Program-made: the position numbers and the translations under genes
Origin: Marsupella aquatica
Taxonomy: Eukaryota; Plantae; Marchantiophyta
Reading direction: 5' to 3'
Assembly (NCBI GenBank): GCA_973895155.1
Contig: OZ316894.1
Span: 2,558,457 to 2,622,456 of the forward strand
Length of the DNA stretch: 64,000 nt
The notes under the pieces: model-generated
Databases searched by the model: none
The model's input: the letters and a program-made list of their open reading frames with translations, nothing else
Told to the model about the DNA's origin: nothing
In this document: positions 629-36,988 of the stretch, piece by piece
How positions within the stretch are numbered: position 1 is the first letter of the stretch
How the letters are laid out: each line of letters begins with the position of its first letter

Positions 629-850
629 ATTATTTTTATTTTTTAAAAAACTTGAACGGAATACTTTACTTATATGTCAAGTAAAACCCAATAAAACTGG
701 GAGTAAAACAGGTCTGTCAGACCCAAAACCAGGTCAAAGACCAAACGCCACACAAAGACCAAACACATTCAGTCCAGTGACACAGGCTAAAAAGGTAAAA
801 AAAAAAGAGGCAAAAGCAGCTAAACCTGCCATACCAAAAAAAACAATAAT
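629..850 (-). mobile_element. Distal 3' UTR and A-rich tail of the LINE at 10690-15010, separated from it by the Gypsy insertion
   Basis: Same A/C-rich (+ strand) composition as 10690-10876; T-rich tract at ~629-644 reads as an A tail on the minus strand; TSD TAAT joins 850 to 10686. Confidence 0.55.
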
Positions 851-1026
851 TGTCGTGACATATAGTATCGTAGCCATAGTGTATCGAAAACATACAAGTC
901 ACTGGCAAGGCATATGTGCAAGCTGCTAGCAACCAACATGCATAGAAAAAGTCCAATCACATTCACAAGTGCCAAGAAAAAGCAAATGAAGTGGTATGTA
1001 CATAGTGGAGGTGTAAACCTCTGTAT
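851..1026 (-). repeat. Terminal repeat b2 (176 bp)
   Basis: Near-identical to 1388-1563 (differences seen: tgtcgtg/tgttgtg, actggc/accggc). Confidence 0.95.
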
Positions 1027-1027
1027 G

Positions 1028-1385
1028 ATAAAAGACGTGATAGAAACAAGTGTACTGAAATTGAATCAAAAACCGGCGGGATGCCAAGATCGGCTGGGAG
1101 CATCTAACGAATCACTGTGTGAATCCCGTGTACGGAACCGACGAGCACTGTCTGAGCTCTGTCGACAGCGATTCAAGAAGAACTAAAAACCCACAAAGAA
1201 AGACATGCCCTAAGCAAGCAAAGTCCTGGCGTCACACTAACAAACACATTTGCTTCAAGAACGGCCCAGACTTGCTACAAGAACATGTCGCTAACTCAGG
1301 TAGTACACTAGCCCTAACTACATACCTAGCGGGCAGGCGAGGGACATGCCGATGTGCATAAGAGGCACTATCCCTCGACATGACA
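1028..1385 (-). repeat. Repeat a2 (~358 bp)
   Basis: Near-identical to 10329-10685 and similar to 15981-16339. Confidence 0.95.
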
Positions 1386-1387
1386 TC

Positions 1388-1563
1388 TGTTGTGACATAT
1401 AGTATCGTAGCCATAGTGTATCGAAAACATACAAGTCACCGGCAAGGCATATGTGCAAGCTGCTAGCAACCAACATGCATAGAAAAAGTCCAATCACATT
1501 CACAAGTGCCAAGAAAAAGCAAATGAAGTGGTATGTACATAGTGGAGGTGTAAACCTCTGTAT
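1388..1563 (-). repeat. Repeat b1 (176 bp)
   Basis: Copy of 851-1026; separated from a2 by 2 nt (tc, 1386-1387). Confidence 0.95.
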
Positions 1564-1570
1564 CCCCCCC
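1564..1570 (-). other. Polypurine tract (G7) abutting b1
   Basis: ccccccc on + strand between the pol stop (1603) and repeat b1; an equivalent G-run lies at 62345-62350 in the second family. Confidence 0.75.
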
Positions 1571-1602
1571 AGACCACAGCCAAAAGGAGGGCTGAAGAAA
1601 AT

Positions 1603-4600
1603 TCAGGTAGCACGTGGAGCACAAGAAGGGCAAAACCATAACCCTTCTGGCACCTGGATAAGTTCAGGCCGAAGGCAGAAAAGATGGTACCCTCCATTGC
1701 AATTGTCACACAGCAGCATCTGGTCAGCATCATCAATTCGCAACCACACCTTGCAAGGGTAGTCCACAGGTGGAATCCAAGTAGAAGTCACAATGGTGGG
1801 ATCTAGGTTAGGCAGATGACAAGGGGCGCAATTCTTGGCATTGTCAGCAATTGTGCGCCCATCTGCCCCTTGTAACTCTAGTACTCTAGATGGTCGAATA
1901 GCTTTAACCCTGAGAATAGTACGACTGGTAGAGGTGTCCAGGGTGTCGTTAGCTTGCCGCTGCAAGTACACAAAATCTCCCACATCAAACTTCCTGACCT
2001 TGGGTTGAAAAGTGCCCCCTCGTGTGTGTGCATAACGCAGTGTGTCCCTGTGCTGTGCAATGGCCAAATTCTCCATGGCCATGGGCATAACCCTCCTGAA
2101 TAGGGCAGCCCTCTCAGAGATCACATCAGACCAAGTCACAGCTGAATCCAAGTCCACCACCTGAAGCATGTGAGCAGCAATAGCAGAAGGTGGAACTGGG
2201 TGACGACCAAACAACAAGAAGTAGGGAGAAAAGTTAGACAGTGATGCATGTCTGGACATCCTATACCCCATGGCAATGTAGGGTAAGGCCAGGTCCCAAT
2301 CCTCCTTGTTTTTGGTGAGGCAGATCTTCCGGAGGCCCTTCTTGCATGTCTGAACCATGCGCTCTGCCAAGCCATCTGCCTGTGGGTGATCTCGTGATGT
2401 GCGGCGATGATCAATGAGGGCCTGATCAAGCAGCTCCTGGAACTCTCCTCTAAACTCTGAGCCCTGGTCAGTGAGACATTCTGCACAAGCTCCAAAGCGG
2501 CTGAGAACTTGTTGTAGGAATGCCTGGCTGGTGCTACGGGAGGTCTTATCCGGCAATGCCACAAGTTCTATCCACTTGGAGAAATGCTCTATCATGATCA
2601 TGATGTAGAGATTACCCCGAGATGTGAGGGGTAATTCTCCAGCCAAATCACATGACCAACGATAAAACATGCCCTGAATAGGGAGTGGGTGAAGTGTGGG
2701 TTGCCGAGACGTGAAAGAAGTCCTTACCCTATCACACTGCTCACACCGGGCAATAACATCTCGAACCTGGCCATGCATGCCTCTCCAATGATAATGAGGG
2801 ACCAAGAGGCTGTAAGTCCTCTTAACGCCAAAATGACCAAGCTCAGAATGTACCTTACGAATAAGGCCAACCCTCTCATGAATGGGTGGAACCACCACTT
2901 CCCTGTTTGGCAAGCAGTGCACGAGATGATCTCCCTTCCACAAGTAGCGCTTGGACCTTTGCTGAATTTGGTCTCTCTGGGCAGTAGTAACATGTGTGGG
3001 GTACTCCCCATGCTGCAGAAATCTTAGAGTGTCGTTGTCCTCCCATATGTCCACCACAGGTTGGTCAATAACATAGCATGGCAGCAAAGCAAGATAGGTC
3101 GATGCATGAAATGTAGGCAGGATGGAAACCTGGTCAAAATCTTGCCGTGCATCTGAGGAATCATCAGAGGTAATCAAAGGGCTGCGGGACATAGTGTCAG
3201 CATTCTGATGTGTCAAACCAGGCCTATGAATTACCTCAAAGTCATACTCCTGGAGGATGAGTGCCCAACGAGCAAGCTTGCCAGTAAGCTTGTCGTTAGT
3301 CATCAACCACTTCAAGGGCTGGTGGTCGGTGTAGAGAGTAAACCTGGTCCCATAGAGGTAGGGCCTGTAATGTATGACAGCCCACACAACAGCAAGGCAT
3401 TCACCCTCATAAGAAGAATAATGACTCTCTGCCTGATTGTTGCTCTTGGATGCATAGGCAATGACGTACTCTTTACCTTCCTCATCATGCTGGCCCAGAA
3501 TGGCACCAATCCCAAGGGCACTCCAATCTGTGTGTAGCACAAAGACCTTGCTGAAATCAGGTCTTCTCAGCACCGGGTATTCTGAGAGCTTCTCCTTCAA
3601 AGTGGCAAATGCTGCCTCAGCATCTGTACTCCATGTCCAAGTCACATTCTTTTTCAACAAAGAGTACAATGGATGTGCAATGGTACTAAAATCTTTGATG
3701 TAGATCCGGTAGTAATTGCACAACCCAATAAAGCTCCTAAGAGTGTGAACATCAATCGGAGTGGGCATTTCCAAGATGGATACCACCTTGGCCCAGTGAG
3801 CCATGGTTCTATTTGGAAGAATGCGGTGCCCAAGGTATACTACTGATCTGACAGCAAATTCACACTTCTTGGGGTGTATCTTTAGGTTCACCTTCTTAAG
3901 CCTCATGAATAGCTCCTCAAGGTCAAGTAGATGCTGGTCAAATCCTTTGCTGTGGACCAACACATCATCAATATAGCATTTCAGAAACTCAGCACCTTGA
4001 AGAACCTGGTCCATGACTCTTTGAAAGAATATGGGCGCATTCTTCAAGCCAAATGGCATCACCAACCACTCCCATAGTTGGTTACTACCATGGAAAGCTG
4101 TTTTCTTGTGGTCCTTTGCAAGCAGCAAAATCTGGTTAAAGCCTTGCCTTAGATCCACAAGAGTGAAGATGTCTGAGTCTCCAATGCTGTCAAATAGCTC
4201 CTATGGCTGTGGCATGGGGTACCTGTCCTGGGGTGTGACCAGGTTCAATGGCCTGTAGTCCCCGCACATGCGCTTCTCTGTCCACAATCCACTGGAATCC
4301 TTCTTTGCTGGCATCATTGTAGCTGCTGCAAAATCTGATGTAGAGGGCTGAATAAGACCAGCTTCATAGAGCTCTTGGCATCTCTCATCCACCAGCTGCC
4401 ACTCATGCTTACTCAAGCGGTGTCTCCGCCTGAAGATAGGTGTTTCATCAGCCAACTCAATGGAGAACTGCATAGTCTTGCACTTACCCAAGTCCTTCAT
4501 AGAGAAAGCAAACACATTCTCATGCTTGAGGAGCAAATTCAGCAGCTGGTCCTTCTGTCTTTTACTCAGGTGGTTGCCCATGATGAATGTGTAGTTGGCA

Positions 4601-7098
4601 ACACTAGGAATAGGACCTGATGTACTCGTGCTTGAAGAACCAGAAGTGCCAGCCTCTCCACTGTCCAAGCTGCTAGCATGCTGCTGATAAGGTGATGAGG
4701 CCTCTCCAAGACCTGTTGTATGTGTTGCTCTGGTCTGATCCACACCATGAAACTCAGAAATAATGTCAGCCACATTACAAGGGACCTCCTCCCCCCCAAC
4801 ACTTGGACTGAAGTGGTGAGTGTTGGACAGAGGTAAGTGCACCTGGTCTGGATGCCATGTAGCAGCACCATGGAGTGGTAGGGCTAGAACTCCTAATGCT
4901 GGATGAATGTACATCTGAAAAAGGATGCAAGTGACCAGAAGCCAAGTGAGAGCATTAAGATCCATTACCCTGCCAAGTAAAGCATTCCTAGCCAGCCTGG
5001 TGATTTTGGTGTGACCTGTAGTACCGGGTTGGAAGCCCATAGCCCGTTCTCTCTCCTCAGGACTAGGTTCATCCCATGTACCGGTAGAATGTCGATAAAC
5101 CAGGCCAGGACCATCACCCTGAAAAGCATGTGCACCTAGAAAGGACACAAATGTAGGCCAAGCAGCATGGGGCTGTCCAATGGTATTAGCTAGATACCAA
5201 GGTGCTGGCTCTTGCCGTGTAACCGGTTGGCAAGAACTGTCAGGATCCAAAATTTGGTCCACTGTGAGGTTAGTGTCCCTGGATGTGTGGTGAAGAGCTA
5301 ACTCCAACAAGGAAGGTGGTGCAAGGTTAGTCCAAAAGTTACGAAGACGATGTGCATAAGAATCACAGTGCACTACATCAATGAGAAGGGGTGGTCCCAA
5401 GTAGTGCTGGACCACACTGAAATCCTCTTTGACCTGTGGACGCTGGTCAAACTGAGATGGAGTATTCTCAATGATATAACCAACAGCAGGATAAAGGGAT
5501 TGAGCCCAGGTGAGAATCTAAACCAATGCTGTGAAAAGGCCAGAACGAGAATCATGCAGTCCAGCACCGTGACCAGCAACTGAAAACCCTTGGCATTCCC
5601 AACCAGCTATGATCAAATCAAGGGAGCCAAGAAGGGTTAAGTGCCGGTGCTGGACAAGCTGGATATCTGGAGGAAAGAAAGAAAATGCAGACTTCCATGC
5701 ACTGTGTGGAAACTGCTGAGGAAATCGCTCTGAAAATTCCAGCAGACGGGATTCTACCACTTGCCTTGCACCTGGATCAATATCCACATAGATGTACTGC
5801 TTCACCACCATGCCAGACTGTAGGAGAGCTTCCAGGCCTGTAGAAATGCCACCAAAAAGCTCAAGCAATGTAAGGCCATCCGGAGCAGGAGTCCATGTAA
5901 TTGGTGCGCTCAAGATTGGGGCTATTGGTTGGCCATTGTGCTGCCCAAGATCCTCAAATTTGCGCAATGCAGCCACCAAAGGTCCATGGGCTGCTTGGAG
6001 CCGTTGTACCACCTCTGGTTGATGATCCACATTGCTGGAAAGTGCTGCTATACGTGCAGCAGCATGTGCAGTAGCCACCTCATCATCATCCTCCTCAATC
6101 CAATCCTGCAATGGGTGGTTGACATAGGTAGCTGTGTGCACTGCTTGCAACACACAGTGGTGAGCCATAGGTGTATGGGCACCATGCAAATCAAGTGGAA
6201 TGTAGCCCAAGTGTGAGCCATCCATATGCCAATCAACTCTGTAGTATGCATGCTCATGCCAATTGTCAATGGTAAAACCTGGTGGGAACAAAGCCTCCTG
6301 GCCAATGAGCACATCATACGTAGTGGCATTGGTAACCAAACATCTTACTGGGAAATGCAATTCCTGATCTGTACCTCCATTAAAAGTGAGAGTGAGTAAA
6401 GTAGAACTCTCACCCAGCACATCCTCCACAGTGCCACTAGCAGTCCGAATGTGCCACCTGGATTGTTGTAAATGATCAGTCAGCAGTCCCATCTTCTTGG
6501 CAAATTGAATGCCCAATATCACTGGTTGAGTGCCTGTGTCCAGCATGACCACCTGAGGAGTGTGACCCTCCAACTTGACCGCTGAATTCTTGTTGTCAAC
6601 AATGGCAATGGTGGTGGAAACTAAAGTCCTGTCGCTAGGCACCACTTTTGGCAAATGATGAGGTACCTTGTGAAGGGAGTTAGTGTCCACGGTCTTTCCA
6701 CTCAACAGCATAGTCAGGAAAGATGGAGCAGCATGACCAGAATCCAGTGTAGCTCTGGTCACACAATCTGCAGCAATACTGTCATCTCTACCTCTGGAAA
6801 TTGGTACTGGGATAGCCAAACCAGTGGAAGCATGTAATGGAGAAGAAGAAGATCCAGTATGTACATGAGATTGGACCTCCAAAACCGGTGTCACAGGGGC
6901 TGATGAAGAATGCAGTGAGCCCTCTAGCGCTCTGATGACAGCTCTAGCATCCAGCTGTAAATCATGGCAACTGAAAAGTGGAGTGGTAAGAATCCTTTGT
7001 GCCATACCGGAGGTGAAATGCTCAAGCAGCACCTGGTGGTGGAATGGATGTAGCTGCAGCTCCCTCCCCCCTCGCCAACAAGGTGCGCTCTTCAGCAA
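1603..7098 (-). pseudogene. Gypsy pol: aspartic protease, C5-MTase, RT, RNase H, DDE integrase, C-terminal PHD finger; two in-frame TAG stops
   Basis: Protease LDTG (~6540); RT RMCGDYRPLN, MPFGLKNAP, YIDD; RNase H LHTDWS, YTDH; integrase HSELGH..C..C, CDLAG, TDQGSEF, AERMV; PHD CDNC..H..C..WFCPSC. ORFs 5518-7098, 4201-5415 and 1603-4158 share one frame, broken by TAG at 5518-5520 and 4201-4203. Confidence 0.95.
4925..5880 (-). other. DNMT3-like DNA (cytosine-5) methyltransferase domain inside pol
   Basis: Motif I LELFGGISTGL; IV IAGWECQGFS..DSRSGLF; VI YIIENT (read past the TAG at 5518); VIII AHRLRNFWTNL; IX EERERAMGF; X RLARNALLGR. Confidence 0.9.
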
Positions 7099-8955
7099 GT
7101 GTGAGTGGCTGAAAAGATTGGGGCATGACAGCCCGAGCTCCCCTGGCTCTAGTCATAGGACCAGCAGCAAGACCATCAGCCTGTACAATGCAGCGTGTGG
7201 GAGCAATACGGGAGGCAGCACTGGCCTGCTGGTAAGCAAAATAGGAAGGACAGAATGAATCTGAAAATTCTGCTGTAAGGCCAGGCTGTGTAGCAGAGGA
7301 CAGCACACACTCACCCATATGAGCATCAAATGGCAAGCCATAGAAAGAGCGGGGTAGAGGTGCTGAACTGTCAGTGGTGCCTGGGCCAGGGATGAGTTGC
7401 ACGTGACCAGCCGGTTGAGAAGGACCAGCAGAGGCAGTGGACTTGCCTTTGATGTTGGCAAGTTGGGCACGTAAGGACTCAACCTCATGAGTCAGAGACT
7501 GGAGTTGAGTTGCCTGTGCGTTGTGAGCCTCCTTCTGAGCTGGTTGCTTCTGTTGCTGCTTGGGCAATTTGTTAGCACTGGATGCTTTGCCACTGGAAGG
7601 AGGAGCAACTGATGCAGTAGGAGCCCTCCTAGCTGGTGGGGGAGTGGAAGCAGGAGTAGGATGAGGGGTCTACTGTCGTAGCTGCTTCCTCTCTGGGAAT
7701 TTGGCAAAACAAACTGCCCCCAAGTGGCCCACTTTTCCGCAAAAATCACAAGACAGGTCCTCAGCAACAATATCACATTCATTAGCCTTGTGATTGGGGT
7801 TACCACAATAGTTGCAAGATGGCAGCATGAAAGCAGCATGTGCTGGCTTGGTCTTGGAACCATACTGTGGCACACGGGAAGGGGTGGTCAGTGTAGGGGC
7901 AGCAGCCTGGTACCTGGATCGCGGTGGACGCGCAATACTGGCCTCATAATGTGCATGGGCCAACTCAAGTTTCTCAGCAATGTCATAGATATTGAGCAGG
8001 GTGTAGCTGTCTCCAAACTCTGAGAATACTTGCTGCAACACTTGCAAATGGAGAGCTGGTGTGCCCTCCAATGCGCAAAGATAGCGATGAGCAGCTTCCA
8101 GGTCAATGATGCTCTGGGTGTCTTCCTTCAGCTTGAGAAGCCGGCGATACAACATCTTCAATGTTTCATCGCGCTGCCTCACAAAGGTGGCCAACTGCAT
8201 GATTTTTTCAGCACTCTTGATTGGGAATTCCAATTCAAGAACCTGGAAAAGCTCAGCCACTGGATCAGCAAATGCAGGGGAATCAATGGTGGGAGAAATG
8301 CCTGATGTAGCTTGTGCCAAGATAGTGGGAGTAACTGGTGCAGTGGTGGGAACTAGAGTAGGAGGAGAAGTGGCAGGAGTAGTAGCATGGGCTGCAATGG
8401 CATTCTGTAATGCCAATTGTGAGGCAACCGCAATTGCAGTGGCATAGGCAGGGTAGGCAATTGTGTGACAGTAAGCAGCCATTGAGAATGCTACTCATAC
8501 ACATCCAAAGCCTCATGGTGCACATACCTGGCTAGCTGCTTAAATGCAAAAGCATTTGTGAAGTTGCTGCCATACTTCAACTCCAATTCGTAAACGATAG
8601 TGTAGAAAGTAGATTTGAACTCATGCAAAGAAACAGTGCCTGGCTGCCCACTGAAGCGCTCAATGCGGCCAGATGAGTGACTGGCATCCATGCTGTATGT
8701 TGGTGAAGCTGGAACAATCACTGATGCAGAAGGAGTAAAGGGCAGAGAAGCGATAGCAAGCTTCAAGGTAGTGGTGAAGCGACCGCCAAATGTAGCAGAA
8801 GGATTGCGTGGTGTGGGTGCTGTTGCTGTCTGCTGACGTCGTCGAAATTGCCGAGACTCCAATGAAACTGGCACCAATGGTCGTGGATCACTCCGTAAAT
8901 GGTACCTGGGTGTCGGTGGCAATGTGCTGCTACCTCCTGGCTCATCGGCTAACAT
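7022..8955 (-). pseudogene. Gag with two CCHC zinc knuckles (disrupted)
   Basis: CNYCGNPNHKANEC and CDFCGKVGHLGAVC; TAG stops at 8491-8493 and 7670-7672; frameshift near 8455-8490; overlaps pol in a different frame around 7022-7098. Confidence 0.85.
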
Positions 8956-10315
8956 GCTGCATGCTCACCTAGGTGCCAACGGGAAAGAAACTGACAAGAA
9001 AAAGAAATGGCAGCCCCAAGGCTAGGAAATAAACGGTGCGAGGCAGAAATGTGTCGAATGTGTAAACACACAGAAAAACCATCGGCAAAGAAAAGACCCT
9101 TAAAAACTCCAATTGTACTGGTGTTGTGCTTGCTGGATTGACTGTCTGATGAATATGCCGGGCCCTTAGCTTTATGCAGATGACACGTGGCGGCAGCAAA
9201 GAAATCCAGAAAAATGGACCCTTAAAAACGTAAATCTGGGCCCCTTTAAGTGTATACATCGGCCTTCTCAAATGTATAAACATGGGGCCCGGTTAAGTGT
9301 ATACATCGGGCCCCGATGTGGACCCGGGAACTGGCAGCAGGTCGATCGTCGCACGGCGAAAAAGTGAGAAAGGCCGAAAAAGGGGAAAATAGCCGAGGCA
9401 AGCTCGCAGGTGGCCGGAAAGAGGAGAAAAGACGTCGCGAGGCAGGGCAAAAGAAACGGGGCCCTCTTAATGGCATGAGCCCTCCATAGGGCTTCGTGCC
9501 CCACCTTATGTGCTCCCGAAAAGGGGCTACGAACTCCCCCCCCCCCTCCTCTCCTTCAATGCAATTTGGGCCTCGTGCCCTGGCAAAAGACTCTCGTGAG
9601 AGGAGTCAAGTGTACTCCTCCCCCTCCCTGCTTTAATTACTCCATAGGGCCTCGTGCCCTGGTGACAGTATGCCCGAAGGCAAGGGAGTCGAGTGTACTC
9701 CCCTCCCCTGCTTCAATGTTGCTTAGGGCCTTGTGCCCTCTCCTGGCACCCTCGCTCCCCCTCCTTCTTTAATGCAGCATAGGGCTTCGCGCCCTCCTTG
9801 CGCTTCCCCCTCCCCTCCGTGGCTGGTGCTCGGCTCCCCCCTCCCTCCTTAATTAAATGCTGGTAGTGGGAGACATGATGCCCTGTACGCACAGCCTGCG
9901 AGATAAAGGCAGGAAAACAAACGGAGGGAGGAACTTCGAGGCTTGGCAAGGCAAAAGAAAAGGGGCGCGCGGTGGCCGAGGCAGTCGTGGCTGGTAAACG
10001 AAAAAGGGCCCCAAAGAAGTCGTTAAAAACAGGAGCGCGGGTGCGCCCTGTGCAATCGGCGTCGATGCAGCAGTCAACGTAGATGCGGCAATCGATAACA
10101 GCAAGTCGCGAAATAGGTTGCGGTCGGAAAAGAAAAGCCTGGGCAAAAAATGCAAAGGAAAACGAGGGAGGGGGGCTTGTTTGACTTAAGTGTATACACT
10201 TAAAGTCATAACTTCCACCCCATCGCTCAGCGTTTTTCCATAGAAATTGCACCGGCTTCACCAGAAATTGTCAAAATCGCCACGAGCAATCTTCTTCTCC
10301 TCACCGCTAACTCGG

Positions 10316-10330
10316 CAGTTCTTCTTGAAT
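10316..10330 (-). other. Putative self-priming primer-binding site
   Basis: cagttcttcttgaat (10316-10330) is the exact reverse complement of attcaagaagaactg (10472-10486) inside a1; no TGG-type tRNA PBS follows a1. Confidence 0.7.
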
Positions 10331-10685
10331 AAAAGGCGTGATAGAAACAAGTGTACTGAAATCGAATAAAAAACCGGCGGGATGCCAAGATCGGCTGGGA
10401 GCATGTAACGAATCACTGTGTGAATCCCGTGTACGGAACCGACGAGCACTGTCTGAGCTCTATCGACAGCGATTCAAGAAGAACTGAAAACCCACAAAGA
10501 AAGACATGCCCTAAGCAAGCAAAGTCCTGGCGTCACACTAACAAGCACATTTGCTTCAAGAACGGCCAGACTTGCTACAAGAACATGTCGCTAACTCAGG
10601 TAGTACACTAGCCCTAACTACATACCTAGCGGGCAGGCGAGGGACATGCCGATGTGCATAAGAGGCACTGTCCCTCGGCATGACA
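10329..10685 (-). repeat. 5' terminal repeat a1 (357 bp)
   Basis: Matches 1028-1385 and is not followed by a b copy. Confidence 0.95.
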
Positions 10686-10689
10686 TAAT

Positions 10690-13600
10690 CCTAAAACACA
10701 CGACGAGCAAAACTGAGGGCCAAACTCAAACTGAAGAACAGGGAGAGAAGCAGTAAGAACCAACTTCTGACACACTGAAACCCCAGCGAAAATCCCAATA
10801 TTTACAAAAGGATTCGCCAACTGCTAACCACTAAATGACGAAAAAAAACACAAACATGACTAAAACTGCCGGAACTTCAAGGTGGATCAAAAAGCCACAA
10901 TGGAGTGAATTCTATGATGAAAAGACCATCCTCCATACGGAACAAGCCACCATCATGACCAAAGTCCCGGATCATCTTTCCACACAAGTCTTGCCTTCCA
11001 CTGTCATTGAGTCGTAGTCGATCCTTCCCTTGCTTCCAAGCAATTTTCATATTCAATCTGAGCTCTCTCCAAATCTTAATCTTAATCCCCACCAGACTGA
11101 TCCGCACCTTCTCCTTTTCCCATGTGCATCGAGCCTTCCATAAATGCCAAATCGTAATTCCTCGGATTAAATGCCAAAGTTTAATTGGAGTATCACGAAT
11201 AGAACAATCCAAAGGAGCACCCATGATCACATGAACTGCAGAAAATGAAAAAATTTGTGAGACCCTCGATCCTGCTCTCTGCGTAATCCTATGTACCCAA
11301 CTCCAAATGTATCGTGATTCACAGCATCCCCATAAACAATGAAGAAAGTCTTCGTGCCAGTTACCCTCACATTGTCCGCACCACCATGCAGCATCGTTAC
11401 GAGAAAAAGGGATTAACACTCCAGCCTCATCCTTCCAAATCGAATGCCTGCCAATGTAATGTTTAGTCGCGAAGATTCTATGAGCGACTTGCCATAAGAA
11501 GAAATTAGTCTTCATCTCTCTGAATGGTTTCCAGATATTCCTCCAAATATCTTTATCCAACGGAACAGCATGCAACTCCTCTCTCCATTTCTGCACCCCT
11601 ACCATGTGCACTGCATCTCTGTTTTGTAATAATTTCCGAATGCTAGCAGTAGTAGCATGGAAGAAACTCAAACCATCTTTCCATAGGAATTGATCTGAGA
11701 TTCCAACAATCTCATCATCATGCCCTTTCAATCCAATGGCTTTCTTCTGTGAGAACCAATTCTTGACTTTCCCAGTAATCATCATATGTAAACTCACATT
11801 GGTTGTTGGAAGAGGACTCATAGCAATCCTTAGAAGAATTCCATCTTTGACAGAAAAGGTGCCTTTAATGCTTCCGACCACCTCTCCTGGATTCCAGAAG
11901 TATTTCAAATCTTGATTCAACATCATCACCTCCCATACCAGATTACCTTCCAGAATAGGTATCTGAGAAACCATAACAGTGACTTCTGCATTGTGTATTC
12001 CGAACTGTGGCATACTCAACCTAGAATTATTTAGAAGGGCCAGAAACGCTCGATGTCCACTGTTCTATACTCCCTTGCTGAGCATTTCGTTGCAGGAAAA
12101 AGGTGACCCATCCGAAGAACAAACATTTTGCCATTTCTGCATACCACATTGTCCCAACAGCTTTTGTTGATTTGACTTGCATCCCACCTTGCTAATCGCC
12201 ACATGAAGACTAGATGGAGACCACAATGGTAACTGTAAAGCCATTTGCAAATTAGCCGGTATCGAGAACTGCAACAGAGTTTTAACCTTATTCCATGATC
12301 TGCAAATTCCTTTCCACAAATTAGAACCATTTGACGGCAGTGTTCGACATGTGTTGAACACCCATGAGTAGTCATCAGATCCCCATTTTTTAACTGATAG
12401 ATCCCGAATACGGGATTGTAAGAGAGTCTGAAGAGGATGGTCTCCAGAAGAAACGGCAAACATCATAAATCTTGCTGCCAGTGCTACTACTTGATGTTCA
12501 ATCGCAATTAAGCCAACACCACCTAGCTTCTTTCTTAGATCAAGAGTGAGTGTGAAAATTAATCCGGTGCTGTGCTGAACTTTCTTGCCCTGCCCATAGA
12601 AAATCAATCAGCCCCATCTTAATAGCATGTAACTCCCGATCTGATCCACACCACAACGTAAGTGTAAACCACAGAGAACCCATCAGAATATGGTTGACTA
12701 CCAAAACCCGTGCGCGCCATAAAAGAATGTGGTCTCAACCTAGCCTGTATCAATTTCTTTTCCATGATCCCCTTGATCGATTGAAGTATATTTCCACTAT
12801 CAATCCCTTCCACACCAAAGAGAAAACCTAGTAGTTTTGAATAATCCTCTGAACTTTCCCAACGCCAATTTAAGTCGGATAGATCTCTTGGTAAAGGGTT
12901 CTTGCTTAGTAGAATAGCCGTCGCCTTATCCCAATTGCATCTCAAACCAGATGCCTTGGCAAAAATCTCAAAGAACTCCTTACAGTTATCAATATTCTCT
13001 TGTACTCCCTTGATAATAATTGTCATATTATCGGCATATATAGAACTGTTGCGCAAGGTGTAAACCTTCTTTCTCAAATTTAATGCCCTTCAACCTTCCC
13101 GATGATAACTTCTCCGTCAACAAGCTATCTAGCCCCTGAATCGCAATGATAAAAAATAACGGTCAAATAGGGCATCCCTGCCTTACCGATCTTGTAATTC
13201 TGAAAGTGGAAGAAACCTTTCCATTTATCAAAATCACAGATGAAGCATTCTTCGTAATTGCATTGAAGAATTTGATGAAAATATCTCCAAATCCTAACCT
13301 CTCCAGCATCTTTTCAATAAAGATCCATTCCACGCCGTCGAATGCCTTTATTACATCCAGCTTCAAGCATACAAAAGGATCCGGCTCTCTCATAGCCTGA
13401 GCCATCATTTCATTTGTAAGCAGTAACGTATGATGAATAGACCTTCCCGACAAATATGCATATTGTTGTGACGAAATGATCTTGATCAGCACTCTGATTA
13501 ATCGTAATTGAAAAGCTTTGGTACCAATCTTATAACTCATAGTCAATAGCGATATCGGTCGCTTATTTTCAATTTGACATTCATCCCCTTTCTTAGCCAG

Positions 13601-15010
13601 AAGAATGATAATTCCTTTGAGGAACTTAGGATCAAAAGAACCTTTATCAATACCGTATTGCAATGCTTGCAACAGAATAGGGCCCAATTCATTCCAAAAC
13701 GCTATGAAGAATTCCGCTGGCACTCCATCATGCCCAGGAGCCTTAAGTTTCCCTAAAGCCTTTGTAGCCGCCTGAATTTCTTCTAACGACAAATCCTGTT
13801 CCAATAAAATTTTATCTTCCCTCGAGATACGAATCTTTACCTTCTCCAGAATCCGTTCCAACTCCTCTTCTGATGGCTTGTATTTTGATGAAAGGAGGTT
13901 AGAATAGAATGTAGTGGCTATCTGCGCCATGTCCGACCATTCGCCCTGCACCTTATCCTCATGATCATATAGCCCTTTCAATTCTAAAGCAATCGCTTTA
14001 GGTTTGAATGATGTGAATTGTAATTGAGAACACTTATCCCCGTGTTGAATCCACTTCATCCTCATCGCTTCCTTAATCCATTTTAGCTTGTTTTCATCCA
14101 ACCTCTATAAGTTTCCTTGGCATTCCAACAAAGCTTCCTGCCTCTCAGTATTATGTGGCTCTTCTTCTAGATTGAACTGCGCTAGCGATAACTTATCTTG
14201 AAGCTCTTTGCATTTTAAAGCTTGCAGCATTGCCTGTCTTTTGCCCCATGCCCTATCCATGTTGGTCGCTCTTTTAAGGCAGCCGTCCAACAATTTATCA
14301 GGGGGAACCTTTTTACGAATCATCTTTGCTATCTCCATTCGTAGCAACTCTTCCATCTTTCGTCTGAATGAATCATCACAAAAATGAGCAGAATTCATTT
14401 TGAACCGTGACGGCAGAAATTGGTTAACTCCATTGGTACAATGAATACTCAGGGGATGATGGTCTGACATGTATTGTGCAAAGATAATCCTCGACTCAAT
14501 GGAACAATTGAACTGCTGCGACCTCTCTGGCGCATAACATCTATCCAAACGTCGATAGATTCTATCTGTGACAAGCATATGTCCCCCTATTCTCATATTA
14601 CACCATGAGAATCTAAGTTGACCCGGAAGTCTTTTGAATGTATCACACGATTTCATCTTCCTCAAGAGATGTTCCCACACCCTTTTTTCACGCCCAGCTA
14701 CTACATGAGGACGACCACCAATCTGATCCTCCAGATTTTCCACCATATTAAAATCTCCCAGCATGATCCATGCAATATCATTTCGTATCTCCTGGAACAC
14801 TTCTGCCCAAAGACCATCTCTCTCTCTTTCTCCATCTATCCCTTTTTGGGGAGGTGGAAGGCTTGCATCCTCCCTATTTCTCTAACTGGATGTCAAAGAG
14901 TTGGCGTGATGAGGTTTTGTCTTACTTTGTTTCTTTTGAATTAGAAGCTAGGACAGACACGATCTGCTAATGTCAGAGAAGAAGGCATAATAGTCTTCAC
15001 CTAGTTTTAT
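10690..15010 (-). mobile_element. Decayed L1/Tx1-like LINE ORF2 (APE endonuclease, RT, zf-RVT), 5'-truncated
   Basis: WIMLGDFN, RLDRCY, SDHHP (endonuclease); KAPGHDG, RPISLL, KLDVIKAFD, VRQGCP, YADN (RT); FFLWQVAH..CGQC..HCLWGC; split by stops and frameshifts. Confidence 0.92.
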
Positions 15011-15019
15011 CAGATTAAG

Positions 15020-16339
15020 TCTCCCCCCTCCTCTCCTTTAATGCAATTTAGGCCTAGTGCCCTGGCAAAAGACTCCCGTGAGAGGAGTCGAGTGTACTCC
15101 CCTCCCCTACTTCAATGTTGCTTAGGGCCTTGTGCCCTCTCTTGGCACTCGCTCCCCCTCCCCCTGATTTAATGCTTCATAGGTCTCCGTGCTTGACTGC
15201 CTGGCAAAAGGACTCCTGAGGGAAGGAGTCGTATGTACTCCCCCCCTCCATTTAATGTAGCATAGGGCCTCGTGCCCACTCCTTGCGCTGCTGCCTTGGC
15301 TCTATCTCCCCCCTATGAATGCTGGCAACGGAAGGTCGAGGCCTGGAACGAGGTCTGGAGGAGGCAAAAGAAAACCGGGACCCCCCTTTAAGACAAGGCA
15401 CGATGTCCTATGTGCGGGAGGACTGGAAGAGAGAAGCTCGAAAGGGTGGGCGTGCGGCCCTATGCGCGCCCAGGGGCAATTTAATGAATGTCGTATTTGT
15501 ATACACAGGCAGGACTGAGCTCACAATAATAATTGCAAGGGAAGGCGAGAAGAAACAACGGCCGGGAAGAAAAATTGGGTGGCAGCAGGTCACGATCGGA
15601 AAAAGGCAAAGCAAACGGACCCGTGGCTCTGTGCGCTCGGGAGGTAGTCGCGAGGTGATCGCACGGTAGTCGAGGGAAACTCGCCGGCAGCCATGGCCGG
15701 GAATGCAAAAACAACCCCAAAAGCAGTCGAGGCAGCAAGCGGCCGTGACAATAAGAAGGAGCAAAGGGGTCACGGATGCAACCAGAAAATGAAATCCAGA
15801 CCTCCTCGAGAGCATTGATATGTGTATACACTTAAGTATACACATAACAACATAAACCCACAACTTCCAACTCGTCGCTCCGATGTTCGTTGAAGAAATT
15901 GCAATGATTTCACCAGAAATTATCAAAACCGCCACAAGCAATCTTCTTCCCCTCACTGCTATCTCAAGAGTTCTTCTTGAATAAAAGGCGTAAGAGAAAT
16001 AAGTGTACTGAAATCAAATCAAAAACTGGCAAGATGCCAAGATCGGCCGGGAGCATCTAACGAATCACTGTGTGAATCCCGTGTACGGAACCGACAAGCA
16101 TTGTTTGAGCTCTGTCAATAGCGATTCAAGAAGAACTGAAAAATGGCAAAGAAAAACATGCCCTAAGTAGGACCGGGTCTAGGCATCACACTAACAAACA
16201 CCTTTGCTTCAAGAACGGCCCAGACTCGCTACAAGAACATGACACTAACTCAAGTAGTACACTAGCCCTAACTACATACCTGGCAGGCATGCAAGGGACA
16301 TGCCGATGTGCACAAGAGGCATTGTCCCTCGGCATGACA
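15020..16339 (-). mobile_element. Second, truncated copy of the split-LTR Gypsy family (a1 plus 5' UTR only)
   Basis: 15981-16339 is repeat a ending ..gcatgaca; parts of 15020-15980 resemble 9535-10328; the self-priming inverted repeat is retained (15969-15982 / 16124-16137). Confidence 0.88.
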
Positions 16340-18670: not shown

Positions 18671-21600
18671 TCACGGAGGGAAAGTGTCAATTTTGTGCCA
18701 ACCTCCTAGAGAGATTGAAATTAATGCATTGTAATAAAATGATAGTATCAAAGTTTGTGAATATACTCCTGGACAGATTTGAGTACGTATCTTAGGAGGA
18801 ATTTTCAATCCTCGATCTATAATGTTCTTTTCTTTCATACCCGATTTAAATCCATACATTGCAGACGAAGCATATTGCCATGCAATGTAGTCATTATCAA
18901 AATTTGGGTTGCGTTCCCAAATTTTGCTCGCCATGAAACACGTACGGTATCAGACTCCTTCGTCTGCATCAAGTTTTCCATGCTTTGGCCTCCACCATTG
19001 AAGCGGAAACATTGGAGCAACTCTATCCACAGAATTTTCATGAGGAAGTGAAGTTGATGTTGAAGTAACATCAGTGATTTTGTGCTTTGGGTCTATTTCT
19101 CCCACAGCTCGAACCAACCAACACAAACCTTTCCCGTACTTCTGTTCCCAATCATCTTCAGGACGAAGGAACACAAAATGTCCCTCCCAAATATCCTCAA
19201 GAGGATTCCAATGACACTTCTCTCTTTCAGAACGAGACCCCACAAAGGGTGTTGTACGATCCTCCATCTCCTTGTTATACTCATTTTGAAGTCCTGTCAT
19301 TTCTTGATTCTCCTCCTCCTCCACTGGTTCGAAAGGAACATCAAATTCTTCAGAGATTCCTCCATTAGACTTGTAGCCTGTGCCATGATTTGTCTTAGGC
19401 CAAAACCCAAATTGTAGCAACAAAATATTAATGTCCTCCCCATCCAATTTAAGGGATCCTGATAGCTGCTCCTTCACATTCTCCCAATATTTGATTAATG
19501 GTGATCGCTCACGATACATGGCAGATGTTGGATCAGTACAACTACTCTTGAGATGCTCAATAAATTTTCCAATAAATTTAAGCACATCATCTGATTCCTT
19601 ATGGAGGTCAACAATCCGTTTGGAAAAAGGTTGTCCATCAGGAATGCTCAGATTTTGAGTGATAGAATCTCTTTCCCAAATACACCTTCCATCCGTGGGA
19701 AGCCATGGTTGCTTCATATGTGTTTTGTATTGCCATATTGGTAAGTTCCTAGCTTTTCATGGAGAAAAGAAATGCAATTGGTTGTGATTGACCTGAGATA
19801 TCCTTTACATGCGATCACAAGTAGTCTTTGTATGCTGCAACCTCTTGAATCAACCTTGGAACAGGGTGGATGCTCTCGCATTCCCAGACTTCCGCCATGA
19901 GTGCCAACAAAGTTGAAACTTCTCGATTTTGAACTTGCTTTGCTACCTTTGAAAAAAGTGCGTCCACGTCCTCGTGTGTATGTCCAACCATGAGAAAGGA
20001 CATTTGCACCGTTTCAAAAACCCCTCTAGCAACAAGTTGGCTACAAAAGGCCATCACAGTTTGATTTTTATTATCCTTTCCGGAGTTGTCCATTTGTAGA
20101 GTAAGGTGACGCGGCAAGGGTTTGAAAGCGGACCTTGATTCTTTCCCTCTTGAAGCATCTCCTTGAGTCTGGGTTGATCCTAGATCAATCCCATCCTCCT
20201 CAATACCTTGATATCTAGTAACATCAAGCTTCTTTGGTTGTAAATATCCTTGTAGAAAAGCATCAAAATCAAGTAGCTTTTGAAATATCATCCGGGTGGT
20301 TTCCCAATAAAGCCCTACAACAATATCTCCAGTCTTGTCTCCATCATACTCTTCAAGATCACGGAGGCATTTGGCTAGCGAAGAAACAGTAAAATCTGAG
20401 TCTCCGGGCCATAGACCCGTAACACTAAAATGCGCATATACTCCTGGATCCCTACTGTGAGTCAACACTCCTGTGAGAGCTACAGGAAGTGGAATTCCCT
20501 GACCCGAAAGTGATTTTGGAAGGCTAGCCAATCTTGGTATCCATGTTTTGGCCTGATCCATCTTATCATGAATGATACAAAGATAATTATCAGGGTCTTT
20601 TTTGGCAAAAACCTGTGAGCATAATATTGGTACCTCTTGGACATCTGCTCCCTCAAGTGCCTTGATCTACTTTCTTCAATTTCTCCCCTTTCTTTCTTTC
20701 TTCTCTCCTTCATCAAACTCTCTTTGAATGTAATGCAAAGATTACACTTTGCAAAAGGTCCCTCCTTGTGAAAAGTGTAGTTATCAAACGATTTGTTCCA
20801 TGTAGTGTACATGGTATTGATCAAAACTGGTTCAACGCCATCTACTTGCATCTTTGATTTCACCTCCTCATAGATGTTCTTTTTGTTGAAGCATGAAGGA
20901 AGTTTGTACTCAATTCAATCTGTTCCACACATACCCGTATATGAAAGATGGGGCATCGGCTCTCCATATTCAATCAAGATGGCCTCAAGGTAAGCACGTC
21001 CAATCAATGTGCTTGATCTTGTTTTTGACACTCCAGTGTTTCCGTGGAAACCAATTTGACAACCATCCTCATACTGGCTTTTGTAACTGTAAAATTGGGA
21101 TCTACTAAACCCATGAATGGTATAAAAAGCCTCTCGACAAACTATCTGTCCATTGAGTACAAAATATCCTTTCTTCACCACCGAGTCCTCTCTGCAATGG
21201 AAAAGGTTAAGGATGTAACTTGTTTTGTTGTTGCAAGACATCCCATGGTACTCGCTTCTTCTTTCTTCCATCTCATCCCGTGAAATATTAAGGGTACACT
21301 TCAGTTTGCAACATTGTTCTCGTTTGATGGCATCAATGGACTCTTCAGTTATTTTTGTCACCACCCGAGATTGAAGATGTCTTCTCCGTCTTTCTTCAGG
21401 ACCAACCTTCATTCTCTTGATACAATTATATGGTCGTTTTGCTGCAGGAATGCTGAGAGTCTCCGGAGGGTCAACATCATATTTACCCTCTATTGCCCAT
21501 TTGTCAGAATACTTGTCCACAATATCTCCAAGAAAGCACCCATTAGCCTCAAGCTTCAAAGAATGAATGGCCCCACCTAATGAGGCCAGGAACACCCTTT

Positions 21601-22461
21601 TGTTCCAATGGGAAGAATGAAGTTTCAAAAATATCCAAAATTGCAACTCCAACGTTGTTTGGGCCAAGGGGTTCCCCGTCAACAACCCCTCCTTCATAAG
21701 GAACAGAAATCACACCTCGAGCAAGGAGATCTTGGCGATCTTTGGAGAATAACTCGACGTGCTCACCCATCCAGTCTGAACGAAGGACAAAATCCTTTTG
21801 CTTTTTGTTTGTAGATCCTGACAACAATTCTTTATTGAGTGACTTTGGCCCTCTGGGTTTGTGCCCCTCCTTCTAACATTAACTAAATCCCAAATCACCC
21901 ACGTGTCCTTTGCCTCAGCAACGGTTTCAGCTCCATCATGGATATAGGGCAAAGGGGCGGATCCATCATAGATCTCATTTATTCGAACACTAATCCGACC
22001 TTCTCCAAGAATGTCATTGTGACAATGATCAGTTGGGGACATCTTGAAAACAAATCCATTGGAGACATGCCGACCTGAAATGAGCATCTCCACCACATCC
22101 CCTTCCAAAAGTCTGGATCTATCTGTAATAGCTGTTGTATCAGTTACTGATGTTTGCCAATTGTCTACTATTGGATATGCAAAACCTGCAACATCTTCCC
22201 TGTTTGGACTAGTGTCACCATGTAGCAAAATAGATGACCTCTCCCATAAAACACAACATCAATTGCATCGTCAAGCTTGGTTGCCATTGGTGTTGGAACG
22301 GGAAGGGTGCGAGACCCCTCAATGGTCTTGAGAATCAAAACACCAATTCTTGATTCTCCAATCGTAATCTTATGCACAATATCAGCTGGATCCGTTTTCT
22401 GAACAATTCCAATTCCAACTTCATATCCATCAATTGTTAACATGACTTTGTCCCCACGCAA
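18671..22461 (-). pseudogene. Sola-like DDD transposase with three N-terminal repeats, fragmented
   Basis: CCKLKC..VCREAFYTIHGFS; FAKCNLC; CIIHDKMDQAK; LQMDNSGKDNKN; FLMVGHTHEDVDALFS; several frameshifts and stops. Confidence 0.8.
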
Positions 22462-28075: not shown

Positions 28076-29395
28076 TCAAATTGGCCAAGGCCTGCCACGC
28101 CTTAATGTACCCCTCACCAATAGTGTCCTTCCATAAGGCCGCCTCTTCACCGGACCGCAACTCCAACGGTAAAACCTGCTCGGTGGCCATGGGAGTCCCA
28201 GGGGTGACAAGGCTCCCTTCAAGTTGGAGATCTCCACGTGAGCTGCTTGGAGAAGTTTAACCTTCTCATGAATGGCCTCCTCCTTGGCCTTGATCACCTC
28301 CTTCATAGACAGGGCACTCTGCTCCAAAGTCGCTACTCTGGCGATGGCCTCCTTGAGAGAATCTCTCAATGCGTGGACTAGCTTGAGTCCCTCATGGACT
28401 CCCTCCCAGAATTCCCGTAACTCCGCCAGGTAGACATCAGGAATGTCGTAGACCAGGGGCTCCTCCAGATCTCCCACAAGTGATTCAAGCCACTCCAATG
28501 TGGAGTCCTCATCCTGGTTTTCTTCCTCTCTATTATCATCCCCAACCGCCGACGATGATCCCTCCGTTAGTTTCCCCAAGATGGTAGTGGCAATACTCCT
28601 TATTTCCGTGGTAAGGGATGATCTAGAGTCTTCCTGTCCCGGGCAAACAATCCACCCTTCTACTCTGGCCAGCAAAAATGACCCCATCAAATGTATAGCC
28701 CCACCTGGTTTCACACTCCAGGGATCCGCGTCCAATAGCTTCTTCAACCCGTAGTACCACCATCCGTACACATGGGCTGGATAGTTCTTGATGTCCATAG
28801 CTACCACGAAATGCTCTCCATTCACCACCCCGGATTGCACGTTACCAAGGACCCGTTGATGAACCTTGGCCAGAAATCCTTTGTGCTCAGCATCCTTGAC
28901 GGCGGAAAGAGGAATGGAAGTAGTGGAGGTGGGATTAATCACCCAACCGGCCACCATTGTCAACGTGAGCTCTCCCCTTATGTTCCGAGGTGTGAATGAG
29001 AATTGTTGGTTCTCCAGGAACAGAAGCTTAGCTAACTCCATATGGGGCACTACCCGTTGGAGACATTCAAAGTAGATTCCTTCCGTACGTAACTCCATCT
29101 CGGCCCCAATGTTCCAACTCTTCCCCGAAGGGATTGTAATCTCCACCTTCATGAACTCCGTGAGCCCGGCGGCTTGAAAAATATTCCTACAATCCTCCAT
29201 CACCTTGGCGGAGGTTTTGGGATAAATTCGACGAAAAACCTTCCTCATAACCGGTGCTGGACTTGCTGCCGGTCCAGTACTCATCGTAGCGTCTCTCTCT
29301 TCTCTCTCTCTTGCAATCAATGTCTCAACGTAGTCACGGTAAGCAGCCTTGTATCTCCGAATGCGTGCCGCACTAAACTCCGGTTGATCCAGCAT
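28076..29395 (-). CDS. Unknown 439-aa protein with C-terminal coiled coil, likely a retroelement accessory ORF
   Basis: Long uninterrupted ORF; acidic linker and heptad-like LRDSLKEAIARVATLEQSALSMKEVIKAKEEAI; family not recognised. Confidence 0.45.
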   Translation of the reverse strand: MLDQPEFSAARIRRYKAAYRDYVETLIAREREERDATMSTGPAASPAPVMRKVFRRIYPKTSAKVMEDCRNIFQAAGLTEFMKVEITIPSGKSWNIGAEMELRTEGIYFECLQRVVPHMELAKLLFLENQQFSFTPRNIRGELTLTMVAGWVINPTSTTSIPLSAVKDAEHKGFLAKVHQRVLGNVQSGVVNGEHFVVAMDIKNYPAHVYGWWYYGLKKLLDADPWSVKPGGAIHLMGSFLLARVEGWIVCPGQEDSRSSLTTEIRSIATTILGKLTEGSSSAVGDDNREEENQDEDSTLEWLESLVGDLEEPLVYDIPDVYLAELREFWEGVHEGLKLVHALRDSLKEAIARVATLEQSALSMKEVIKAKEEAIHEKVKLLQAAHVEISNLKGALSPLGLPWPPSRFYRWSCGPVKRRPYGRTLLVRGTLRRGRPWPI

Positions 29396-31418: not shown

Positions 31419-31895
31419 GGTTGATCCCGGATCAACCCTCTTTTGATATGGATTCGTTGAAACCATCAATTATATTTGTGTCTCACTATGTGGTTAGACA
31501 TTCTTGATCTCTATGAATCCATAATTGTAGTGTGAAATGCAATAAATACTCTTTTCACAGGCATCGGGTTGATCCAAGATCAACCCTCACTATACACTTA
31601 AATTGTGTTGATCCGACATCACTCGGACTCCTATACACATGAATTCTTTCACTCAATCTGCACGGGTTGATTCTGGATCTACCTCCGCACAAATTAGGTT
31701 GATAAACTATTCCTCCACACAAACTAGGTTGATCCGGGATCAACCCTCTCTTGACACGGAGCTGGTTGATCCCAAATGAACCTTTGCTTTGCACATACAT
31801 TTGGTTGAATTTGGATCAGTCCTCCTCTTGTAATACAGATTGGGATGATCCGGGATCAATCCTCTTCTAGAGAAATTGTTGAATCCAGGATCAAT
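31419..31895. repeat. Array of GGTTGATC-N3-GATCAACC palindromes
   Basis: Perfect-armed copies at 31419, 31567 and 31727; variants at 31665, 31764, 31803, 31843 and ~31878. Confidence 0.85.
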
Positions 31896-31945
31896 GCTAG
31901 TTCATTTGAATTTCATGATCCAAGAGAGGATGCTAGGTTGGAAGA

Positions 31946-36740: not shown

Positions 36741-36988
36741 ATGTACACTTGTACATCCTCTAAAATCCATTTTGAACTCATTCGTTAACAGAGGTAGATG
36801 AAGAGATATCAAGTGTGAAGAAGCAGTCACGGCCAAAACTATGCAATTCAGAAGGTATTTGGTGTGGTCATTTATTGTTTTGTCTGTTTTTTTGATGAGT
36901 TTGTCGATGGCGTCGGCTCATGACCCTCTTTGGTTCTTTATTGGTTATTCGGTTTGATTTTGATATCAAGTGATTTGACATCTTACAG

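Follow-up and report, generated by a model that had tools for sequence, protein, structure and literature searches.

Capture of DNA methyltransferases (DNMTs) by Gypsy retrotransposons has already been published. The described case is KnitGypsy-Dnmt3, which is known from Klebsormidium only in the available text of de Mendoza et al. 2018 (PMC5890265), where no mechanism for its repeats is given and chlorophyte Gypsy-DNMT3 elements are not described. In the portions at hand of PMC12344493 and bioRxiv 10.64898/2026.05.21.726589, 'streptophytes' are named as previously reported, and the trees of both may already include land-plant sequences. The DNMT of the EpiLTRs/DAM-LTRs is regarded by its authors as distinct from the streptophyte Gypsy-DNMT3 (bioRxiv 10.64898/2026.05.21.726589, available text). 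In the accessible part of REXdb (PMC6317226) the words 'methyltransferase' and 'PHD' do not occur. Neither a land-plant report nor a circle model for Gypsy-DNMT3 was found in the literature searched, most subscription papers lying outside its coverage. Here, an element of the KnitGypsy-Dnmt3 kind is described from the land plant Marsupella aquatica (Marchantiophyta). The stretch analyzed, hereafter the window, comprises 64,000 nucleotides (nt) of contig OZ316894.1 (assembly GCA_973895155.1, positions 2,558,457 to 2,622,456), and all coordinates are those of the window.

The element is a high-copy Ty3/Gypsy-PHD retrotransposon with a DNMT3-like domain in its polyprotein. It is not an isolated capture and belongs to a green-lineage-wide family of the kind published for Klebsormidium. 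The overall best explanation, held with a little more confidence than doubt, is that of a dead Gypsy-PHD copy with a conserved DNMT that would methylate the element's own new DNA, and with a predicted insertion via a circle. The bryophyte range, the green-lineage breadth, the two positions of the domain and the predicted self-primed circle integration are apparently new. What DNMTs carried by retrotransposons do has been a standing question since 2018, in part owing to hosts that are hard to manipulate.

The DNMT3-like domain in the polyprotein

A polyprotein frame runs on the minus strand from 7152 to 1603 and encodes, in sequence, a protease, the methyltransferase, reverse transcriptase (RT), RNase H, integrase and a PHD finger. 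The initial annotation had placed a full C5-methyltransferase motif set in frame between protease and RT, and all motifs quoted there do share one minus-strand frame. The region it gave, 4925..5880, does hold the C5-methyltransferase domain, the extent of which is set here to 4906-5877. The features of the domain are listed below, with motifs numbered by the usual C5-methyltransferase scheme.

4906..5877, minus strand: DNMT3-like C5-cytosine methyltransferase domain (324 codons, motifs I to X, unrearranged order)
5833-5865, minus strand: LELFGGISTGL motif of the DNMT domain
5590-5604, minus strand: GWECQ of the DNMT domain, with the catalytic Cys
5518..5520, minus strand: stop codon in the DNMT domain
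5461-5472, minus strand: IENT motif of the DNMT domain
5323-5355, minus strand: AHRLRNFWTNL motif of the DNMT domain
5032-5055, minus strand: ERERAMGF motif of the DNMT domain
4969-4998, minus strand: RLARNALLGR motif of the DNMT domain

The Pfam DNA_methylase profile (PF00145), proposed earlier as a check, scores the domain at 29.1 bits when the stop is read as X, above the curated cut-off of 22. The best solved-structure relative of the single window sequence is DNMT3A (E 2.4e-7). With a profile of 12 relatives, DNMT3A (E 2.6e-18) ranks above DRM-type entries (2e-12 to 4e-9) and HhaI (3e-7). Judged by sequence and fold comparison, the methyltransferase is closer to DNMT3 than to DRM, DNMT1, DNMT2 or bacterial enzymes, and its motif order is linear. 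The AlphaFold model of the domain (pLDDT 89.6, pTM 0.90) matches DNMT3A/B over its whole length in Foldseek (TM 0.70-0.72). In the VIA structure comparison, DNMT3B aligns with Z 27.4 (root-mean-square deviation 2.6, 267 aligned residues), while M.MpeI (Z 24.3) and HhaI (Z 22) rank lower. The ESM Atlas returned DNA_methylase clusters at 0.94-0.96.

Motif I for the binding of S-adenosylmethionine, the catalytic Cys, the motif VI Glu, the motif VIII RxR and motifs IX-X are all present. An alignment of 12 proteins with 36-74% identity shows no variation at C95, E137, N138, R177 and R179. The parallel of RLARNALLGR to DNMT3, drawn in the initial annotation, is partly lineage-specific, only the R and G of this motif being near-invariant in the 12 aligned relatives. 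The catalytic Cys in WECQ and the replacement of ENV by ENT were described correctly, and both are family traits. WECQ is found in 134 of 245 hits and WPCQ in 42 (ENT in 118, ENV in 60), so that the missing proline of motif IV is a family state. WECQ was also considered as a sign of decay; this was rejected given its frequency among the hits and the invariance of the catalytic residues across relatives. The domain is probably catalytically active, although the absence of the canonical Pro-Cys and ENV from the window domain weighs against such activity.

Of 345 pattern matches in JGI metagenome contigs, 213 encode a relative; the 80 best entered the comparison. When the window is added to these 80, a single frame spans 85% or more of the domain in 62, of which 42 are distinct (<98% identity); the others were excluded from the counts. 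All 42 possess the catalytic Cys, the Asn of motif VI and the two Arg of motif VIII. When the window is compared with the 41 other distinct loci, the DNMT shows a median nonsynonymous divergence (dN) of 0.25, a synonymous divergence (dS) of 2.2 and a ratio (omega) of 0.11 (38 finite values). The other domains give 0.10 (protease), 0.11 (gag), 0.05-0.07 (RT) and 0.07 (integrase). The comparison of dN and dS over family copies, suggested in the initial annotation, hence points to purifying selection. For 5400-5890, four sequencing runs list 37 variant places, of which 27 are third codon positions (p 1e-6). By these codon comparisons the DNMT domain is under purifying selection, with Ka/Ks below 0.2 between families. 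Two points count against this: omega is only rough because dS is near saturation, and among the JGI loci themselves it amounts to 0.38 for the DNMT and 0.32-0.56 for other domains. The value of 0.38 is as expected from decay in place after insertion.

It is very improbable that the domain is a neutrally decaying passenger fragment, or else a recent capture of a bryophyte host DNMT3 (see below). A passenger would agree with the stop codons, since at least one lies within the domain in 40 of the 42 distinct copies, but the same copies bear stops in RT, RNase H and integrase, and the omega of 0.11 speaks for constraint. In public sequencing runs, 10,550 contigs of X1 and 6,051 of X2 align to the element, with the DNMT covered like its neighbors; summed contig depth is not taken as copy number. 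None of the 12 runs listed for the element is an RNA run, which has no bearing on its expression. The stop at 5518 is replaced by a different base in all covering contigs of X1 (10), X2 (8) and X11 (1), while in X5 no contig covers the position. With the catalytic residues kept in 42/42 copies, an omega of 0.11 and this stop absent in three runs, the domain is retained in other copies and is not decaying neutrally. The DNMT3-like domain is almost certainly real and under selection. The central proposal of a land-plant retrotransposon polyprotein with a DNMT3-like C5-methyltransferase is borne out by profile, fold, selection and other copies.

Relatives and descent

A profile search counted 515 clusters at E up to 1e-30. 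Intact natural reading frames are available in P0360 (Calypogeia fissa), P0001 and P0002; naturally intact DNMT domains include NCBI CAM6101866.1 with WECQ/ENT and Mp_4g09160 with WPCQ/ENV. P0360, from the closest named relative, is 78% identical over the domain and carries Gag, protease, DNMT and RT in a single frame of 1549 amino acids. Other named bryophyte relatives are from Sphagnum compactum, S. troendelagicum, Riccia sorocarpa and Marchantia polymorpha, and the named algal relatives are from Closterium, Haematococcus, Chromochloris, Monoraphidium and Cymbomonas. No Klebsormidium-named protein occurs among the retrieved relatives, name look-ups of 20 proteins included, and the viral contigs scanned gave no relative. 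A PHD-bearing integrase accompanies the DNMT in nearly all full-length relatives. The order in JGI copies with neighbors (best 80 of 213) is Gag-protease-DNMT-RT-RNase H-integrase-PHD, deletions and nested insertions aside.

A tree was built from 36 domains selected from the stored hits; it is unrooted and covers element-borne domains only, none of them from Klebsormidium. The 20 streptophyte-type rows lie on one side of a branch with support 99/99, and this clade is recovered too in larger FastTree runs. In these rows the DNMT precedes RT wherever neighbors are seen. The window groups with the Calypogeia and JGI proteins (100/100), and a second bryophyte lineage with WPCQ/ENV falls with Closterium. 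Across the 118 proteins with both RT and DNMT, the DNMT is located between RNase H and integrase in 112 and before RT in six. These six form one clade in the RT tree as well as in the DNMT tree, and the RT and DNMT distances of the 118 proteins correlate with a Mantel r of 0.71. The position between RNase H and integrase includes proteins named Haematococcus, Chromochloris and Monoraphidium; in a Cymbomonas protein the DNMT is directly before the integrase. P0144 and P0234 have a protease upstream of the DNMT, yet are placed outside the streptophyte-type clade.

Inheritance from algal elements appears likelier than the capture of a bryophyte host DNMT3, because the nearest DNMTs (Closterium, chlorophytes) are all element-borne. 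A recent capture would fit with DNMT3 being the best named match and with the retention of DNMT3 by bryophytes (PMC6453930, available text). However, the nearest relatives reside in elements of Closterium and chlorophytes, and no DUF3444 is present among the listed hits, whereas host plant DNMT3s carry DUF3444 according to the same text. An old capture carried into land plants would be the simplest reading of the sequences.

Six gene models of Marchantia polymorpha (P0224, P0233, P0236, P0238, P0239, P0240), namely Mp_4g09160 and five MARPO models, correspond to fragments of the polyprotein, either protease-DNMT or Gag-protease-DNMT. They represent a sister lineage in which the motifs are WPCQ/ENV, although WPCQ is not clear in P0240, and are named in no paper of the literature searched. 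Through the Marchantia polymorpha relatives, the question of function can be put to a genetic model that has DNA-methylation tools of its own. Element-borne domains may inflate the DNMT inventories of bryophytes. Some algal-type polyproteins (P0005, P0140, P0162, P0205) contain an additional G-patch (PF01585) or chromodomain (PF00385). One complete Gypsy-DNMT polyprotein of the algal type, P0155, bears the label of a bacterial metagenome bin and is probably a eukaryotic contamination.

Element structure and proposed integration route

The complete element is composed of the following features, in addition to the DNMT domain.

851..10685, minus strand: whole element, 9835 bp, TG...CA ends, layout A1-gag-pol-B1-A2-B2
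847..850, no strand: target-site duplication (TSD) TAAT, 4 bp, left copy
10686..10689, no strand: TSD TAAT, 4 bp, right copy
10329..10685, minus strand: repeat A1, 357 bp (9 substitutions and one indel versus A2)
10472..10486, minus strand: predicted RNA 5' end and self-primer, complementary to the site below (putative transcription start)
10316..10330, minus strand: site resembling a primer-binding site (PBS) directly after A1, 15-nt complement of 10472-10486
7025..8691, minus strand: gag, broken, start codon at 8691, CCHC knuckles at 7724-7816
6289..6579, minus strand: aspartic protease, LDTG at 6532-6543 (PF13975, E 5.6e-6, just under its cut-off)
3820..4593, minus strand: reverse transcriptase, YIDD at 3964-3975, stop at 4201-4203
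3244..3633, minus strand: RNase H
2347..2886, minus strand: integrase, H2C2 finger and DDE core
1621..1752, minus strand: PHD finger at the integrase C-terminus (PF00628, E 2.7e-9)
1564..1570, minus strand: polypurine tract (PPT, G7) directly before B1
1388..1563, minus strand: repeat B1, 176 bp (2 substitutions versus B2)
1386..1387, minus strand: 2-nt spacer of the CA-NN-TG junction B1/A2 (predicted integrase attachment site)
1028..1385, minus strand: repeat A2
1027..1027, minus strand: extra base at the A2/B2 join, which differs among copies
851..1026, minus strand: repeat B2

The window copy is dead, because pol has two stops and gag is broken: stops interrupt it at 8491 and at 7670, and its frame changes twice, near 8452 and again near 7035. 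The single stop reported earlier (5518) is correct within the DNMT domain, but not for the remainder of the copy, where the second pol stop (4201-4203) and the gag defects are found. In the relatives P0002 and P0360, gag and pol form one open reading frame (ORF). The order protease-RT-RNase H-integrase, the TG...CA ends, the 4-bp TSD and the PPT are hallmarks of Ty3/Gypsy. Two whole terminal long terminal repeats (LTRs) are not present; instead the repeats are split as in the split direct repeats of the DIRS type. No tyrosine recombinase family was found among the eight translated stretches that were scanned, which gave an rve integrase instead.

The PPT adjoins B1 and the PBS-like site adjoins A1, so that reverse transcription would take B-NN-A as the LTR. 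In the proposed route, transcription would begin within A1. The RNA would then pair through its initial ~14 nt with the site after A1, thereby priming RT without a tRNA, like in Tf1. Self-priming Ty3/Gypsy elements have precedent (PMC4600332, available text). Ordinary LTR-type reverse transcription between the PBS-like site and the PPT would then generate a linear [B-A]-body-[B-A] DNA, and end-joining of this DNA into a 2-LTR circle would create the variable A/B join. Finally, the DDE integrase would open the internal CA-NN-TG of the upstream LTR, lose the 2-nt spacer and insert the element with a 4-bp TSD; a 2-LTR circle opened there would yield the A-body-B-A-B product. Junctions of 2-LTR circles are cleaved by the foamy-virus integrase in the available text of PMC1180852.

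The priming step is suggested by the 15-mer of the PBS-like site, which complements a stretch ~200 nt into A, a length reached in 0 of 40 control windows. A pairing motif of 11-15 Watson-Crick pairs is found in 22 of 24 JGI 5' ends, and its position is consistent in 21 of them. The JGI family differs from the window family on both sides of two of the pairs, and the helix remains paired. The B1/A2 junction reads CA-NN-TG, and where 0-4 nt were allowed its spacer measures 2 nt in 20 of 21 pattern hits, some of these rows being re-assemblies of one insertion; the spacer letters vary. Of 20 rows, 11 have a flush A2/B2 join and nine an altered one, and join variants that are alike are not sisters in the tree (13 loci and the window, with support that is weak in part). 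Among 19 rows, the 4-bp TSD matches exactly in 13, with one mismatch in three and not at all in three. A second element in the window (61738-64000) has the same 3' layout, PPT-B-CA-GC-TG-A-B. The CG of the terminal CACGACA is retained in three divergent families (window 851-857, 61738-61744, and the JGI loci) despite a CpG-poor pol.

On the repeat anatomy we lean towards integration via a circle or an equivalent end-join. Alternatively, the A/B join could be inherited through template switching in the style of DIRS/Ngaro, in which case the integrase would take linear A...B DNA as its substrate and an end-joined 2-LTR circle would not be required. This is the less probable route, yet a serious one. 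It accounts for the occurrence of A-body-B-A-B alone, as none of 24 5' ends has B upstream, and for the flush join being the commonest; the layout is also described as typical of DIRS (PMC5890265, available text). However, the LTR that reverse transcription would define from the PBS-like site and the PPT is exactly B-NN-A, the join variants recur on separate branches of the partly weakly supported tree, and the element ORFs contain no tyrosine recombinase.

Several observations weigh against the circle route. A symmetric circle could open at either of two identical sites, and thus the mirror product with B upstream of A1 is expected as well; it is seen in 0 of 24 5' ends, which the symmetric circle leaves unexplained. 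B2 is nearest to its own B1 in only four of eight elements (A1 to its own A2 in seven of eight). The exact PBS complement exceeds all controls in only five of ten elements, its partner having been picked as the top match out of many positions in DNA that is AT-rich. The z-score of the RNA fold is only -1.96. If the repeat anatomy is read correctly, the 2-LTR circle, usually deemed a dead end, would be the normal substrate of a DDE integrase.

A-coding-B copies were considered as a proof of one-LTR-circle insertion. This was rejected because L010:5262-14931 and L022:536-9666 represent one insertion site with both the A-body-B-A-B and the A-body-B form; B-B recombination or assembly collapse suffices.

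Two further relatives of the element are located in the window. The second Gypsy-PHD element (61738-64000, minus strand) has an integrase of 57% identity, and its 5' part, with any DNMT it may have, lies outside the window. Its 3' end consists of the PPT, B1 (62342-62205), CA-GC-TG, A (62202-61876) and B2 (61875-61738). At 15023-16339 (minus strand), a related copy is represented by a 5' fragment, 85-88% identical, that comprises repeat A and some of the leader; 14 nt of the PBS complement are kept and the 15th pair is lost.

Between the two A-bearing copies, a broken element resembling a long interspersed nuclear element (LINE) with an RVT_1 match is found at 10877-14881 (minus strand). Broken ORFs with DUF7869 (E 1.6e-39) at 18950-22258 (minus strand) are probably a DNA-transposon-like repeat. 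The region 28076-37764, possibly a large repeat element, contains several long ORFs without Pfam match, short tandem arrays and a NIF-like phosphatase ORF at 36979-37764. Host genes on the minus strand encode a YGGT-family protein and ribosomal protein L9 (50416-51264 and 57555-57923). Seven plant ribosome chains match the L9 exon with 182-203 bits, all others with at most 144. Taken with Calypogeia as the closest named relative, these scores suggest a host among the liverworts or other bryophytes. A 57-bp tandem repeat of ~11 copies spans 52071-52710.

Role of the methyltransferase and known systems

As part of Gag-Pol, the DNMT would enter the particle along with RT and integrase. Either released by the protease or still fused to RT, it would methylate the complementary DNA (cDNA) or the circle, likeliest at CG, so new copies would be pre-marked. 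The chances are evenly balanced that the element's own cDNA or circle is the main substrate. The SymbioDIRS-Dnmt3 enzyme methylates CG in yeast in the available text of PMC5890265.

The pol region has a CpG observed/expected ratio (o/e) of 0.23 (0.11 at codon positions 2-3 and 0.14 at 3-1), while CWG (1.51) is not depleted and CpG is retained in the leader (0.74) and A (0.89). This pattern is consistent with a long-term CG methylation of the replicating lineage, and the CpG difference between the element and the LINE is significant (p 4e-8). Three results stand against methylation by the element itself. In the region homologous to the second Gypsy the difference is not significant (28/79 vs 40/77, p 0.24), although the second Gypsy is no clean control because it may itself carry a DNMT. 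In five JGI copies the pol CpG o/e is 0.32-0.37 and that of the flanks 0.15-0.38, pol being higher than the flanks in four and slightly lower in one; host methylation can explain the loss, since JGI pol is mostly less depleted than its flanks. Finally, the Klebsormidium enzyme gave no methylation in yeast, which its authors call inconclusive (PMC5890265, available text). CpG depletion was consequently not accepted as proof of self-methylation, given the p of 0.24 and its absence against the JGI flanks.

An active DNMT might instead act mainly on host DNA and, together with the PHD-integrase, methylate the target site or flanks and set the local chromatin. This is unlikely. The pairing of DNMT and PHD-bearing integrase in nearly all full-length relatives would suit it, as would the DNMT directly before the integrase in most algal-type proteins and the de novo activity of PpDNMT3b at CG and CHH in heterochromatin (PMC6453930, available text). 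In the streptophyte clade, however, the DNMT precedes RT, away from the integrase. Even less probable is a non- or weakly catalytic DNA-binding module, which might hold or protect the CG attachment site or aid end-joining. The substitution of the motif IV proline by glutamate in 134/245 hits, the lack of methylation by the Klebsormidium enzyme in yeast and the terminal CACGACA CG kept in three divergent families amid CpG loss favor such a module. Nevertheless, the checked catalytic residues are invariant or nearly so among proteins of 36-74% identity, and WPCQ/ENV lineages recur across the tree. Methylation of the element's own new DNA is the preferred role. Its widest form remains tentative and, taken whole, is rather doubtful: a green-lineage-wide clade, abundant in bryophytes and including Marchantia members, with obligatory 2-LTR-circle integration via an LTR-internal CA-NN-TG, in which the element's own DNMT3 would methylate the circle, possibly at the CG of the attachment site, before insertion.

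Compared by description only, KnitGypsy-Dnmt3 of Klebsormidium nitens shares the intronless, unrearranged DNMT3-like domain in the Gypsy Pol ORF, the A-coding-B-A-B repeats and the purifying selection. The present element differs in its land-plant host and very high copy number. It also has WECQ/ENT and a PHD-bearing integrase, neither of which is mentioned in the available KnitGypsy-Dnmt3 text, nor does that text contain self-priming, an internal CA-NN-TG site or a TSD. SymbioDIRS-Dnmt3 shares DNMT3 in the Pol polyprotein and the A-coding-B-A-B repeats, but is described with a tyrosine recombinase (PMC5890265, available text), whereas the present element encodes a protease and a DDE integrase and has TG...CA ends with a TSD of 4 bp.

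Animal DNMT3A/3B are the best match to the domain in sequence and fold (TM 0.70-0.72, Z 27). The linear motif order is as in DNMT3s, unlike DRM. The identity to animal DNMT3 is only 19-27%, with WECQ in place of SPCN. Unlike animal DNMT3 and the bryophyte PpDNMT3a/b (Yaari et al. 2019, PMC6453930, as far as available), the domain is without DUF3444, PWWP or ADD. The EpiLTRs/DAM-LTRs are likewise LTR elements with DNA methyltransferases and a chromatin reader, but in the available text their DNMT is sister to DNMT4 and is combined with an adenine methylase and a chromodomain (bioRxiv 10.64898/2026.05.21.726589).

Tf1, Sushi and Tcn1 share the order protease-RT-RNase H-integrase and a PBS complementary to the RNA 5' end (here predicted) rather than to a tRNA (PMC4600332, PMC6317226, available parts). 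They possess two whole LTRs, whereas the present element has split repeats, a PHD finger and a DNMT. The foamy virus also uses a DDE integrase on a near-palindromic circle junction, the cutting being predicted here (PMC1180852, available text). In that virus the site is the end-to-end join itself. In the present element the predicted attachment site is hard-wired inside the LTR, apart from the join, so that the circle would be obligatory.

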